A stretch of DNA of 64,000 bases from a virus (Duplodnaviria; Caudoviricetes). A program made the position numbers and the translations under genes. The DNA lies in the IMG/VR virus record IMGVR_UViG_3300042350_003801; one strand, written 5' to 3'. Position 1 is the first letter of the stretch; every line of letters starts with the position of its first letter. The notes under the pieces were generated by a model. The model searched no databases. It saw only the letters and a program-made list of their open reading frames with translations, and was not told the DNA's origin. Below are positions 2,014 to 58,587 of this stretch, piece by piece.

Positions 2014-2585
2014 ACTCTATTCCCCCATTGAATCTCGGGAAATGCTTCTTTAACAACATCGAAGGAAATGTTATACTTTTCTTGTAGCTTTTTATCTGTT
2101 ACAAAACAAATAATTTCAGCCTCACGAGGATGTAGACCTTGTAGCAGATTGATGAACATTGTTTCTCGGCGAATTTTAGATAATTCTGCATTTCCACCGT
2201 GAATGAAGTTTCGGAAATTATTATATTCCTTGCGAATAGTTGTTCGGTTATTACTACCATAAGAATCTAACATCTCAGTAGTCTTTAGTTGCTTATTCAT
2301 ACTATCTGAAAAGGTTGTATCATTTCCAACAACACCAATTTCCCTGGCATCGGCAAATGGAACATCCCCCGAGGGAACTGCCGAAACTAAGCTCGGGTCA
2401 TAATTCCAAATGAATACTGCCATCATAGATGGGTCCTTATATTCTTGAAGAACTTCTACTTTTTTGGCATTAGAACGTTGTTTTACAACAAGGTCAAAAA
2501 CTTCAAATAAAAAGGGATTGGCTGGAAGTTTTTTAGGCGTAGTCACCTTCGTCGTCTTCGTCTGTGTCGTCATAATTTTGATCAA
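2010..2585 (-). CDS. conserved T4-like hypothetical protein (likely start MTTQ at 2573)
   Basis: ORF track; start lies inside the remnant 3' end of the upstream gene. Confidence 0.7.
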   Translation of the reverse strand: MIKIMTTQTKTTKVTTPKKLPANPFLFEVFDLVVKQRSNAKKVEVLQEYKDPSMMAVFIWNYDPSLVSAVPSGDVPFADAREIGVVGNDTTFSDSMNKQLKTTEMLDSYGSNNRTTIRKEYNNFRNFIHGGNAELSKIRRETMFINLLQGLHPREAEIICFVTDKKLQEKYNISFDVVKEAFPEIQWGNRV

Positions 2586-2634
2586 ATGTTACTGCGTAAA
2601 GTATGTCTGGTTTGATAGGCCCGTCGCTATTATA
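2555..2634 (-). repeat. displaced original 3' end of the 2839-3060 gene; 80-bp imperfect direct repeat of 2858-2937
   Basis: 71/80 identical by manual alignment; encodes YNSDGPIKPDILYAVTFDQNYDDTDE versus YNYDGSIKPDILYAVTFDQNYDDTDE. Confidence 0.95.
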
Positions 2635-2791
2635 GTAACAAAAACCAATAAGAGCCAAAAACTCTATTGATTTTATAGACGCTTCATAGCAGATGCTAAA
2701 TGGTAAATAACCTTTTTAGTCTTAATTCCGCTCCACGTCCGTAATCGGTGTACTCCACCGATACCCGAAAAGTATTAACTAGCCGAGCGTC
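2612..2791 (-). ncRNA. orphan TnpB omegaRNA-like gene (29-nt leader, scaffold, putative guide)
   Basis: 2657-2762 homologous to the tnpB 3' region 55697-55804 with a compensatory stem change; own TAAATA promoter at 2794-2799. Confidence 0.8.
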
Positions 2792-2937
2792 TTTATTTAT
2801 CTAACTTTTGTTTGTGGATAACTGAAAATACTCTATTCTCAGGCGTCCTCATAATCTTCTTCGTCTGTGTCGTCATAATTTTGGTCAAAAGTTACTGCAT
2901 AAAGGATATCTGGTTTGATAGACCCGTCGTAGTTATA
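2635..2937 (-). mobile_element. non-autonomous, tnpB-less derivative of the tnpB element, carrying a recoded host-gene 3' end
   Basis: same junctions (ATGTAT left, TTACTAT right), same leader and same scaffold as 55695-57089. Confidence 0.75.
2794..2799 (-). promoter_or_regulatory. T4-type late promoter (TAAATA) for the orphan omegaRNA
   Basis: GATAAATAAAG directly upstream of the leader; same context as 57004-57009. Confidence 0.7.
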
Positions 2938-55165: not shown

Positions 55166-55683
55166 TTAACCTAGATCTTGTAAAAAACCCGTTTCAAGAA
55201 ATGCCTCTTGTTCCATATCAACAATAGGTGTTGCAAACTCAATAGGAGGATTTGCAGTTTCAAACGTTTCAGTGCATAGACCAAAAAGTTCAATAAGGGT
55301 TAGAGTATCTGTTACATCAATTGCCTTTAGGTCTTTTTCAATTACCCAGTCTTGAAATAGGTCAATCTCTTTCCAGGGGTCTTCGGAATAACCCCACGGT
55401 GGTTTAATGTCATTCATTATGCAGCTCCAGTTTTTAGAAATTCGGGTAGACCCTTATAAAGGCTATAGGCATACTGCCGTTGCTCTTCGGTTAGTGAATC
55501 TTGATGCAGTTCACTAAACTCCCCGGCGGGCTCTTCTCCTAAAAGGTCCATAACAATGTTTGGCTTCCAGTTGTCATATGCAAAAGGATTCTGCCAAGTT
55601 GAGTCTTCGGTTAGATTGTTATAAAAAACTGTTGCAAGTGTAGCCAGGTCGTCGGTTTGATTTCGGTTCATAATTAACTCCAT
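55166..55683 (-). CDS. two acidic hypothetical proteins (55166-55417, 55417-55683) between gp44 and gp62
   Basis: ORF track; the RBS of the upstream one lies in the gp44 remnant. Confidence 0.55.
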
Positions 55684-55694
55684 TCGATTTCATA
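55674..55694 (-). pseudogene. displaced original gp44 3' end (TAT GAA ATC GAA TGG AGT TAA = YEIEWS*), occupying the putative guide position
   Basis: matches the current gp44 end YELEFSG* at peptide level; abuts the element end TTAC. Confidence 0.75.
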
Positions 55695-55804
55695 GTAAAA
55701 AACTCTATTGATTTTCTAGACGCTTCACAGCAGATGCTAAATGGTGAAAATCACCGCTCAGTCTTAATTCCGCTCCACGCCCGTAATCGGCGTACTCCGC
55801 CGAT
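55695..55804 (-). ncRNA. cis omegaRNA scaffold overlapping the tnpB 3' end
   Basis: hairpin ATCGGCG/CGCCGAT; GGGCGTGGAG...TGAAGCGTC pairing typical of IS200/IS605 right ends; homologous to 2657-2762. Confidence 0.8.
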
Positions 55805-56901
55805 GAAATTTCTTTATCGGTTAGGCTGCGCCAACCTTCCTTTAAGATATTGATAGAGGCATTTAAGTCTCTATCATGTTTTGAGCCGCAAGACGGACAA
55901 GTCCATTCCCGAATGTTTAGAGGCATCTTGTCTTCCTTGTAACCACAAGAACTACAAGTCTTACTAGAGGGAAAGAAGCGGTTAATCTTAACCAAGACTT
56001 TTCCATACCAGTTGCATTTATACTCTAACATAGAAACAAAAGTAGACCAGGCTGCATCAGAAATAGACTTCGCCAGTTTGCGGTTTTTCAGCATTCCAGA
56101 AACATTAAGGTCTTCAAGAACTATTAAATCAAATGTGTTCACTAAAGCGGTAGACACATTATGAAGAAAATAAATTCTTGAATTGGTAATGAATTCGTGT
56201 ACTTTAGCAACTTTTATTCGTTGCCGGTTGTAACGATTACTACCTTTAGTCTTACGACTTAAATGTTTCTGTGCTTTTTTGAGTTTCGCTTGGTTCTTGC
56301 GAAACCACTTGGGGTTGTTGATAACTTGACCATTTGAAAGAATGAACAAGTCTTTAATGCCCAAATCAATACCTACTACTTTACCCGTAGAGGGTATTGG
56401 ATTGAGTTCTTGCTTAATCAAGATAGAGACAAAATATTTTCCGGTTGGTGTTTTAGAAACAGTAATGCTCCTGAAGTCTGCTTCTTCGGGAATTTCGCGG
56501 TCAATAACAACTTTAACCCAACCAATTTTTTCAAGTCTAACTAAAGAGTTTTTTTGGTCAAGTTTAAACCTTTGATTATTGAGTCTAAAAGACTGCCTAT
56601 TTGATTTCTTCTTGTATCTGGGTCTTCCGAGTTTAACCTTTCGTTTCTTGTTGAAAAACTGTTTCTTAAATTCAATAAAGTCATCTCTTTTTTGTTGAAG
56701 GGTAGAAGCAGAAACCTCTTTAAGAAACTCAAATTCAGGAGTGTCTTTAAGCGTCTTCTCGGTAATAACTTCCTTGGAGTTGTTATTGAAGTTTTCAACA
56801 AGTTTATTCCAAACAAACCTGCAACAGCCGAAAGTCTTTGCTAGTAGAATTTCTTGCTCTTCAGACGGATAAATCCGAAACTTGTATGCTTTTAAGTGCA
56901 T
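55705..56901 (-). CDS. tnpB: TnpB RNA-guided endonuclease (IS200/IS605 family)
   Basis: N-terminal [12 protein letters not shown]; RuvC GIDLG, VLEDL, DRDLNAS; zinc finger CSSCG...CPSCG; all three acidic catalytic residues present. Confidence 0.97.
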
Positions 56902-56913
56902 CCGCTCTGTTTA

Positions 56914-57009
56914 TTGGTTGGCAATACTATTTAGTAAAGTTTTATTTTATAAGGGGAGAATTGCTCCTCCCCACCTGAAAAGCGCCAACCAACCAGGCAT
57001 CTTTATTTA
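56914..57009 (-). promoter_or_regulatory. double late promoter / antisense leader module of tnpB
   Basis: TAAATA at 57004-57009 and 56928-56933; hairpin 56953-56972; TTGGTTGGC (56992-56984) complementary to GCCAACCAA (56922-56914). Confidence 0.7.
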
Positions 57010-57065
57010 GTGAAGTTTTAACAACAAAAAACATAATGCACAATATAATTTTCAAGTAAGTTAAG

Positions 57066-58055
57066 TTAACCAGAAAACTCCAATTCATACATAATTTCAG
57101 TTACACAAGACATCATATTGATTTCTTGGTCTGCAACTTTCGTTGCTAAATCCTGGTATTTTGCCAGAATCACAATACAAGGAGGAATCGTTGCTTTAAC
57201 GATTTCTTCATTTTTCCATAACTCATCAAAGATTTTTCTGATTGTAATGGATGGGTCGTTATCAATGTTCTGAATAACCCATTTTCGCACATTAGCATAG
57301 TTCTTGCTCTTGATGTGCTGAAATAATTCAATAACTGAAACATCGGATGTTGTTCCAAGAATACCAACATCAATGATACCGTTTCTTGCATATCCCTGAA
57401 GTTCTAGAAGTGTTCTCCTAAAATCAGGATAATATTTACCAACATAAGATGCAACAACTTTTTTGTCAAACTCAATATTCTCAGTTTCTAAAATCGTGCA
57501 AACACTCTTAAAGAATCGGGCAAGAATCTTTTGTTTTTCGTCAGACGGAAATGTGAAGTCCTTATTAATACACCTTGAGCACAGGGCTTTGTCAATTCGG
57601 TTCTTGTAATTACAAGTGAAGATGAAGACACAATTTGATTGAAAGTCTTCAATAAATGCCCGAAGTGCAAGTTGTGCATCGTGAGTGAGATTGTCGGCCT
57701 CGTCAATCAGTAGAAACTTCTTCCCGGTTGATAAAAGAGAAATCGTAGAAGCATATGATTTAACTTTATTGCGAATCACATCAATGCTTCTTTCTTCACT
57801 TCCATTAATCTTTATGAAGTCTCTACCTAGTTCATCTGCAAGCGCAAGCGTTACTGATGTTTTTCCAGTTCCAGACGGGCCAGAAAGGAGAAGATTTGGG
57901 ACATTTCCAGAATCCCTCAGTTCAATAAAGTATGACTTTAATTGTTCAGGAAGAATACATTCATCTACTGTTTTTGGCCTATGTTTTTCAGTGAAGAGGA
58001 ACTCATTGTTCATTATATAAATTGCGGGGTTAATCAAATAGTTCAACGTCTTCAA
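57066..58055 (-). CDS. gp44: clamp loader large subunit (last ~7 codons supplied by the tnpB element)
   Basis: EKHRPKTV, GPSGTGKT, IDEAD, SRC motif. Confidence 0.95.
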   Translation of the reverse strand: MKTLNYLINPAIYIMNNEFLFTEKHRPKTVDECILPEQLKSYFIELRDSGNVPNLLLSGPSGTGKTSVTLALADELGRDFIKINGSEERSIDVIRNKVKSYASTISLLSTGKKFLLIDEADNLTHDAQLALRAFIEDFQSNCVFIFTCNYKNRIDKALCSRCINKDFTFPSDEKQKILARFFKSVCTILETENIEFDKKVVASYVGKYYPDFRRTLLELQGYARNGIIDVGILGTTSDVSVIELFQHIKSKNYANVRKWVIQNIDNDPSITIRKIFDELWKNEEIVKATIPPCIVILAKYQDLATKVADQEINMMSCVTEIMYELEFSG

Positions 58056-58587
58056 TAAAGAATTTAAGGTCTTCTTCTGTCATAGAGACATCATTCTCCA
58101 CCTTAACTTTAGGTCCAATAAAATCATTGATTCGTTGAATTCTTGTTTCAATGTCTTTTACATCAAGATTATGAAGTTCATAATTTCCGGTGAAGTCAAA
58201 CAGTGGAACAAAGGTTAGAGAATCACCCCGTTCAAAGAGTTTGTGCATACCCATTAGTTCGTAAGTGGCAGCCCCGGCGGCGGCAACGACACGCCGATCG
58301 GAGGCGGCATACCCGGCGGCATACCAGGCGGCATTCCCGGCGGCAGCCCCGGCGGCATACCTGGCGGCATTCCCGGCGGCATTCCTGGCGGCATAGTAGG
58401 TGGCATAGTCGGGGGCATCATAACGGCGGGCAACTTCATCCCATTGGTTCTCGGTAAGACCATCCATAAACCACCAGAAGTTAAGGACGGTTTCGTAGTT
58501 TGGTCCTAGAAAATTCTGTGGATTTTTTAGGGCTTCAGGGTTTTGAAGTTCGTTGGAGAAGTTTTGATGTGCTTTGGAGTAGTTCAT
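58030..58587 (-). CDS. Ala-rich repeat protein, paralog 4, with an extended C-terminus
   Basis: same N-terminus and ATYELMGMH motif as the other paralogs; inserted between gp45 and gp44. Confidence 0.85.

Follow-up and report, generated by a model that had tools for sequence, protein, structure and literature searches.

A TnpB cassette in the last codons of the cyanophage clamp-loader gene gp44: a probable agent of RNA-guided homing or exclusion

RESULTS

Features of the gp44 locus

We analyzed a 64,000-nucleotide (nt) stretch of DNA, IMG/VR record IMGVR_UViG_3300042350_003801 (hereafter the window), which belongs to a freshwater T4-like cyanophage and carries the replication module on its minus strand. 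On this strand, the genes follow in the order gp46, gp45, a variable open reading frame (ORF) of 185 amino acids (aa), gp44, tnpB, an 88-aa ORF, an 83-aa ORF, gp62, regA, hsp20, and gp43. The subject of this study is the cassette around tnpB, which lies between the clamp-loader gene gp44 and the 88-aa ORF. Alleles of gp44 that lack the cassette are termed naive, and those that bear it are termed carriers; L-numbers label contigs and P-numbers label proteins of relatives. The features of the locus are as follows.

57066–58010, minus strand: gp44, large subunit of the clamp loader, 314 aa, ATG at 58010; Pfam AAA and Gp44_lid; 83–97% identity to metagenomic gp44 proteins.
57098–57107, minus strand: site 1 in carrier gp44, TGT GTA ACT, where most naive alleles read TGT ATY ACY; the right junction of L082 and L123 lies here.
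57066–57089, minus strand: replacement tail of gp44 (tail1), TAT GAA TTG GAG TTT TCT GGT TAA = YELEFSG*, after ..ATT ATG; seven residues after Met.
57010–57065, minus strand: 56-nt spacer between the stop of tail1 and the conserved left part of the cassette; identical in L081.
56902–57009, minus strand: conserved left part of the cassette, upstream of tnpB, with two CTAAATA motifs, a GGGGAG/CTCCCC hairpin, and a long-range pairing of TTGGTTGGC with GCCAACCAA; conserved in L081, L083, L086, L087, L089, L093, and L102.
55705–56901, minus strand: tnpB, 398 aa; Pfam HTH_OrfB_IS605 PF12323, OrfB_IS605 PF01385, and Cas12f1-like TNB PF07282, all above cut-offs.
55692–55804, minus strand: omegaRNA scaffold and right end, ending TTAC TAT; a deletion variant without 20 nt (the 3' arm of the guide-proximal hairpin); 89% identical to 2657–2762.
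55676–55691, minus strand: predicted 16-nt guide, GAAATCGAATGGAGTT, the first bases past the divergence point TTACTAT.
55674–55694, minus strand: ancestral gp44 end (tail2), TAT GAA ATC GAA TGG AGT TAA = YEIEWS*; colinear with naive L001, L111, L112, L117, L129–L131, and L133.
55417–55683, minus strand: 88-aa ORF (MELIMNRNQ...), its start overlapping tail2; the same overlap with the gp44 stop occurs in naive relatives.

Two gp44 tails in the carrier

A preliminary description of this DNA proposed that gp44 receives its C-terminus from the tnpB element and that the old C-terminus is the guide. Both tails lie on the minus strand where it had placed them, YELEFSG* at 57089–57066 and YEIEWS* at 55694–55674, the latter after the tnpB stop and right behind TTAC (55698–55695), and the two do differ at 11 of the 20 nt behind TAT, as it had counted. 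It had also rated so short a match as weaker evidence than a similar case at 2.6–2.9 kb, and the alignments agree, with a score of 116 against 17 in shuffles at the latter. For tail1 and tail2, the local alignment score is 16 and the shuffle mean is 17. The nucleotide similarity of the two tails by itself is no better than chance, and the case is therefore decided by comparison with relatives.

At least 12 contigs yielded eight distinct gp44 alleles without tnpB (L001, L111/118, L112, L117, L129, L130, L131/132, and L133). In L001, the closest IMG/VR relative (gp44 83% identical, no tnpB), gp44 ends ..ATG TAC GAA CTT GAA TGG AAT TAA, and the 88-aa ORF (MELIMNRNQ..) begins inside these last codons. 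The seven alleles besides L001 came from a pattern scan for the gp44/88-aa junction and from protein-based look-ups. Their ends read YELEWN*, YETEWN*, FELEWN*, YELEWS*, and similar, and in all eight the gp44 stop and the start of the 88-aa ORF overlap. The tnpB-free end that had been predicted, of YEIEWS* type and followed by the 88-aa ORF, is thus present in relatives, with six residues after Met. Additionally, the downstream copy in the window, TAT GAA ATC GAA TGG AGT TAA TT ATG AAC CGA.., is colinear with the gp44 end and 88-aa ORF start of all naive alleles and is therefore the ancestral gp44 end. A scan of metagenomes for the junction of tail2 with the 88-aa ORF returned one already known empty site and one unrelated match.

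The length of the tail sets the carrier apart in the same way. The Met is followed by six residues in every one of the 79 complete IMG/VR relatives. Of 120 database proteins, 118 have this length, and the two with seven residues are P0001 (..YELEFSG, a carrier cluster) and P0002 (..YELEFVN). The ending YELEFSG* is confined to carrier alleles, namely the window, L081, and cluster P0001; tnpB-free relatives ending in YELEFSG, which the preliminary description had named as the finding contrary to its claim, did not occur. One could suppose from the chance-level nucleotide similarity that YELEFSG* is the natural end of gp44 and that YEIEWS* is unrelated sequence past an intergenic insertion, but such a coincidence can hardly be entertained. 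It is refuted by the empty sites: in every cassette-free relative, a YEIEWS-type end runs directly into the 88-aa ORF start, and YELEFSG* ends no naive allele.

Tail1 is identical in L081. Its first 15 nt, TATGAATTGGAGTTT, fall within the natural variation of the alleles (L130, L111), TCTGGTTAA is found in no naive allele, and only TCT GGT TAA and the following 56-nt spacer are without counterpart in any of them. The proposal that the tnpB element supplied the C-terminus of gp44 therefore stands insofar as the tail is a newcomer with the insert and has to be narrowed insofar as only the last two codons and the stop are truly foreign. Collectively, these comparisons show that the YELEFSG* tail arrived with the 1.4-kb insert and that the YEIEWS* copy is the ancestral end of gp44.

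A further allele has a seven-residue tail. In L128 (4420–4500), gp44 is 87% identical and ends YELEFVN*, with a 21-nt spacer before the 88-aa ORF. Within this spacer lies TTTTTGTTACT, identical to the last bases of the full-length right end (a right-end-like 11-mer, p ~0.03); homology between the 56-nt spacer of the window and the L128 spacer is not significant (p ~0.1). L128 may represent a decayed or lost cassette with the substitute tail kept, a scar, or a donor-type allele.

The TnpB protein and its relatives

The window TnpB has the domain order HTH, OrfB_IS605 (RuvC), and zinc ribbon, and it matches ISDra2 TnpB structures with E=1e-72. Residues D179, E263, and D345 align to D191, E278, and D361 of the ISDra2-type chain, leaving the D-E-D triad intact, and both CxxC pairs of the zinc finger are present. 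The RuvC motifs are likewise kept in eight other full-length copies, except for EDL in L093. Among the gp44-site copies (window, L081, L082), the ratio of nonsynonymous to synonymous divergence (dN/dS) of tnpB is 0.06–0.12 at a dS of 0.30–0.37. These values point to strong purifying selection, and the protein has therefore been kept working since the gp44-site copies diverged.

IMG/VR holds copies of this TnpB at 80–96% identity, three of which are at the gp44 site (L081, L082, and L088). The left side of L081 is identical to that of the window, new tail included, and L082 and L088 supply right sides. L123 and L081 share a sample of origin, their tnpB ends are identical by eye over a 113-nt overlap, and L123 very likely supplies the right side of L081. 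The gp44 site is thus polymorphic, with the cassette present in the window, L081+L123, L082, and L088 and absent from the eight naive alleles. Identity between the window and L081 tnpB is a mosaic of 83–99% per 100 nt, in which blocks of 83–89% lie beside blocks of 99%, and this suggests recombination among element copies circulating in these phages. Furthermore, an exact-peptide-seeded scan of prokaryote representative genomes, which moderately diverged host copies may escape, found no TnpB closer than 42% identity. Close relatives were found solely in viral contigs, and the lineage may be maintained in phages.

The omegaRNA scaffold and the right end

The scaffold overlaps the 3' end of tnpB and runs to the right end of the element. 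The consensus fold of ten copies has 39 pairs, of which 98% are paired, compared with 36–51% in slid controls, and two helices show compensatory changes. The fold is kept in a tnpB-less mini cassette at 2632–2799, which no longer has the reading frame. A permissive scan of 55400–57300 against Rfam gave no match to omegaRNA, introns (group I among them), or any other family. The right end is defined by the point after TTACTAT at which 12 copies diverge (ten aligned copies and two loose contig ends); beyond it the sequences are unrelated.

Junctions, the predicted target motif, and IS607 affinity

Two right junctions are found in gp44, one after ..ATG TAT (window, L088) and the other 16 nt upstream after ..TGT AT (L082, L123), and a third follows ..GAG ATG TAT in a 73-aa gene. 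All three independent junctions correspond to TGTAT, directly before the junction, in at least some naive alleles, and the donor copy reads ACTAT. Based on these three junctions, we predict a target-adjacent motif (TAM) of about TGTAT with an AT/TAT core, which would therefore explain the pattern ATG/TAT ... TTAC/TAT (the slash marking the junction). The TAM of an IS607-family IStron is TGGG, and the end of its scaffold reads UCGG; the GG common to both is the core dinucleotide of the recombinase, and the difference upstream of it stops self-cutting (PMC10690162).

A serine recombinase lies directly upstream of tnpB in L085 (Pfam Resolvase), L090, L091, and L101, and the family is therefore IS607-like. 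A tblastn search of the 64-kb window with the L085 TnpA gave no match, and the window copy is at best a non-autonomous IS607 derivative.

Two observations concern other members of the family. In the autonomous relative L085 (1967–2430), a 143-aa ORF upstream extends into the left part of the element and stops at the TAAATAA motif; when the flanks are joined by eye, this ORF would gain a different, longer end. Insertion into the 3' ends of genes may be a habit of this TnpB family. L087 and L089 share the left flank and the element, and their right flanks (after 4233) are unrelated DNA past TTACTATTCGG, an apparent rearrangement or module boundary exactly at the right end of the element.

The predicted guide and the gp44 alleles

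As reported for ISDra2, the omegaRNA consists of a scaffold and then a 16-nt guide, and its stem 4 is contacted by the WED domain (PMC10097598). Because the old gp44 tail adjoins the omegaRNA scaffold, it is read as the guide, which would be GAAAUCGAAUGGAGUU (55691–55676). The preliminary assignment of the old C-terminus as guide is upheld as to position; the first base of the guide is probably 3 nt further on (GAAATCG...), which would make TGTAT the TAM. The structural part of the proposal, a new tail that came with the insert and an old tail in the guide position, holds.

To compare the guide with its possible targets, we counted mismatches. The window guide differs from its own gp44 tail1 at 8 of 16 positions, positions 4 and 6 among them, and from the naive alleles at 2–4 positions, the best being L112 (two mismatches), which also has TGTAT. 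Similarly, the L088 guide has one mismatch to L112, and the L123 guide has one mismatch to each of L117 and L133. The carrier's own tail, at a site of this type, reads TGTAT+GAATTGGAGTTTTCTG. At site 1, carrier gp44 differs from the L082 and L123 guides by only one or two bases, and it has TGTGT instead of TGTAT (Ile to Val), a change that would remove the predicted TAM. Naive L129 and L131 also have TGTGT at this upstream site. Such variation in naive and carrier alleles is compatible with resistance alleles. As in homing-endonuclease systems, the carrier allele is set apart by sequence, here by 8/16 guide mismatches and by TGTGT at the alternative site.

A domesticated regulator of the TldR type would leave its target uncut and, bound to DNA through the guide, would lower transcription near gp44 or the 88-aa ORF. 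Repressors derived from TnpB do occur in phages, and the guide does match DNA of the phage's own locus. We nevertheless consider this very unlikely, given that the RuvC triad and the zinc finger are intact and that the self copy of the target is without the predicted TAM; the loss of RuvC catalytic residues that marks TldR proteins was not found in the window TnpB.

A second cassette in a 73-aa gene

The tnpB-less mini cassette lies in a membrane-protein gene of 73 aa, whose tail is duplicated.

2839–2937, minus strand: replacement tail of the 73-aa gene (left, working copy); score 116 vs 17; further from the naive alleles than the right copy.
2632–2799, minus strand: tnpB-less mini cassette of the same family, with an ATAAATA motif, a leader of ~29 nt, and a full-length omegaRNA scaffold ending TTACTAT.
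2533–2634, minus strand: ancestral tail of the 73-aa gene (right copy), adjoining the right end of the mini cassette; colinear with naive L134–L140.

The alignment score of the two tails, 116, compares with 17 in shuffles. The naive relatives L134–L140 have one continuous tail, and all read GAGATGTAT/AAY at the corresponding position. By eye, a central 38-nt stretch of the right copy equals L140, from which the left copy differs there at three positions, and the predicted guide of the mini cassette, AATAGCGACGGGCCTA, has 4/16 mismatches to the phage's own working copy. An unrelated gene thus shows the spare-tail design again, and the one tnpB of the window would serve it in trans.

The left part of the cassette and the origin of the duplication

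The CTAAATA motifs of the left part resemble late promoters and flank the GGGGAG/CTCCCC hairpin and the 9-bp pairing. The two pairing arms co-vary by eye, changing together in L083, L087, and L102. The left part may be a regulatory leader or an antisense module. Over the 300 nt that span the new tail, the spacer, and the left part, the window and L081 are 99–100% identical, compared with ~95% in the flanking genes. This junction identity fits a recent transfer or strong constraint, and it is a hint of co-conversion of the flanks in co-infection.

The duplicated gene end could plausibly have arisen by unequal recombination between co-infecting genomes or by a recombinase joining the right end to an upstream TGTAT. 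Two other ideas were discarded. A left end ~22 nt before TAAATAA, preceded by GTAT, was rejected for L083, whose upstream gene naturally ends right at the TAAATAA motif. The idea that the two spacers, of 56 nt at gp44 and 39 nt at the second locus, are diverged copies of the downstream gene starts, which would place the first insertion further downstream, was unsupported (p = 0.3–0.5).

Occurrence in lake water

Closely related DNA is present in many lake-water metagenomes; among RNA runs, none contains the locus. The right junction (55200–55741) and the left junction region (56990–57500) occur without any difference in contigs from at least three independent lake studies (2020, 2023, 2024). 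Sample 3300059473 has records of a carrier protein (P0001) and of a naive one (P0003); carriers and naive relatives therefore meet. The contigs of four metagenome runs contained filled junctions and other right-end copies, and the loose ends at 57090 and 57096 proved to be gp44 genes of distant cyanophages. GenBank phages match the gp44 region at 60–72% DNA identity at best and are mostly Synechococcus myoviruses, so there is no close isolate.

The neighboring 185-aa ORF

The 185-aa ORF between gp45 and gp44 (58030–58587) belongs to a family with several paralogues per genome (also L001 2458–3991 and 6439–7277). Its ends, ..LGPNW..VLNFW.. and ..F(L/V)PLF.., are conserved, and an AAGNAA-type repeat lies inside. 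The middle is hypervariable, with 57–71% identity between the window and L081 where the flanks show ~95%.

DISCUSSION

Proposed mechanism

We regard it as probable, with reservations set out below, that the locus is a transposase-less, IS607-related TnpB/omegaRNA cassette in the last codons of gp44 that acts by RNA-guided homing or exclusion against naive gp44. Transcription of the omegaRNA would run past the right end (..UUACUAU) and on into the old gp44 tail, from which the RNA would gain a guide of ~16 nt. In a co-infected cell, TnpB with this guide would cut the gp44 of cassette-free relatives beside the TGTAT motif. The break in the essential gene would be repaired from the carrier genome, copying in the cassette together with the substitute tail (homing), or the rival phage would be disabled. 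The carrier would be protected, as its working tail differs from the guide at half of the positions and the guide-coding copy is preceded by ACTAT rather than TGTAT. Moreover, the 16-nt shift of the right junction between window/L088 and L082/L123 would re-aim the guide. The replacement tail in an essential gene is the distinctive part of the locus.

Several observations weigh against this mechanism. The gp44-site copies (window, L082, and L088) have the 20-nt deletion, and the deleted hairpin arm would correspond, by position, to stem 4 of the ISDra2 omegaRNA; the guide RNA of these copies may be weak or dead. No perfect match to a guide exists in the sampled naive alleles, and TGTAT stands at the window's site in 1 of 8 naive alleles, the other seven having TGTAC or TGTTT. 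The contigs of the four metagenome runs contain no empty site at ≥85% identity. The family copies L083, L086, L087, L089, and L093 show no flank duplication above shuffles; a spare tail is thus not a feature of every family member. On the left, the mobile unit has no definable boundary in the comparisons, and cleavage, guide RNA, and TAM are themselves predictions.

The first three of these points, together with the missing transposase, would also be expected of an inert scar, in which a TnpB element landed near the end of gp44, unequal recombination duplicated a few codons, and the arrangement is tolerated while nuclease and guide stand idle. We judge such a scar unlikely. It does not account for a dN/dS as low as 0.06–0.12 over a dS of ~0.35, that is, after the deletion arose, or for a scaffold fold that is maintained with compensatory changes even in the mini cassette without an ORF. 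Furthermore, the same architecture is found at two genes, all three junctions lie at TGTAT, and the carrier allele is without TGTAT at the alternative site too.

Cutting could also serve competition rather than spread: TnpB would cut the gp44 of co-infecting relatives and thereby exclude them, copying of the cassette would be incidental or rare, and the substitute tail would be self-immunity only. In favor of this reading, gp44 is essential for replication, and its divergence of 12–17% in most of the naive relatives sampled would lower the efficiency of gene conversion; phage nucleases are also known to act in interference competition (reviewed in PMC13565253). As the whole explanation, we find this rather improbable, for the cassette occupies the homologous position in phages whose tnpB differs by a dS of ~0.35, and conservation is higher in the junction region than in the genome on either side, which would fit a cassette that moves together with its flanks. 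A weapon and a drive are, moreover, not mutually exclusive.

Possibly, though we advance it only tentatively, homing at gp44 is one part of a natural RNA-guided "home-and-rescue" gene drive in lytic cyanophages. One TnpB would serve several guide cassettes, each placed in the 3' end of a gene with a spare guide-resistant end and thus usable even for the essential gp44; junction shifts to the next TGTAT would re-aim the guides, and naive phages would answer by changes in the TAM or seed.

TnpB is known to keep its transposon from being lost: it cuts the vacated site on a sister chromosome. Its spread into co-infecting phage genomes has so far been proposed in theory only (PMC13565253). The present locus offers a concrete natural case, with carrier and naive alleles of an essential replication gene, two guides for gp44, and a second locus in trans. 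Should the mechanism be confirmed, it would show how gene flow and competition among abundant aquatic phages are shaped by RNA-guided nucleases, and the system would provide a compact TnpB whose motif (TGTAT) is new and whose guide scaffold is naturally shortened. In the literature, we found no description of a spare-tail TnpB arrangement.

Comparison with known systems

The ISDra2 TnpB/omegaRNA (IS200/IS605; PDB 8EXA, 8BF8, and 8H1J) shares with the window copy the protein family, the catalytic residues, and, by prediction, a target that is the uninterrupted site beside a short motif. It differs in its Y1 transposase, where the window copy has none and its relatives pair with a serine recombinase, and in its motif, TTGAT as opposed to the predicted TGTAT. 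TnpB-driven transposon homing was described by Meers et al. 2023 (PMC10055086); there the vacant site is on a sister chromosome, whereas here it would be in the genome of another lytic phage, with a substitute gene end carried along.

IS607 TnpB elements and IStrons (Zedaveinyte et al., PMC10690162) have the serine-recombinase TnpA, as do relatives of the window copy, which itself has no TnpA. In both systems, TAM and scaffold end share their last bases (TGGG and TCGG there, the predicted TGTAT and ACTAT here), so that the donor copy would remain uncut. Both insert into genes without killing them, IStrons by RNA splicing and the cassette described here by a spare DNA copy of the gene 3' end.

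The free-standing homing endonucleases SegF, SegG, and MobE of T4-like phages, known for intronless homing and marker exclusion, are alike in that a nuclease gene lies in or between conserved replication genes and is polymorphic among relatives. They are also alike in the presumed cut in the naive allele, in protection by sequence differences, and in the expected spread through recombination in co-infection. In contrast, recognition is by protein in those systems and would be by guide RNA here, where one nuclease can serve several loci and can be re-aimed by a junction shift.

Phages and islands that integrate into transfer RNA or transfer-messenger RNA genes carry a replacement 3' end; the displaced end is left downstream, and function is restored by the element. 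Those integrators depend on an integrase and a near-identical att core, whereas the two copies here are diverged and the displaced one is positioned to encode the guide. Finally, engineered home-and-rescue or recoded-rescue CRISPR drives place a nuclease and guide in an essential gene with a recoded, guide-resistant 3' end and target the wild-type allele. Rescue by a spare gene end, unlike the intron strategy of the IStrons, mirrors these drives: the design at gp44 would be the same, only natural, viral, and TnpB-based.

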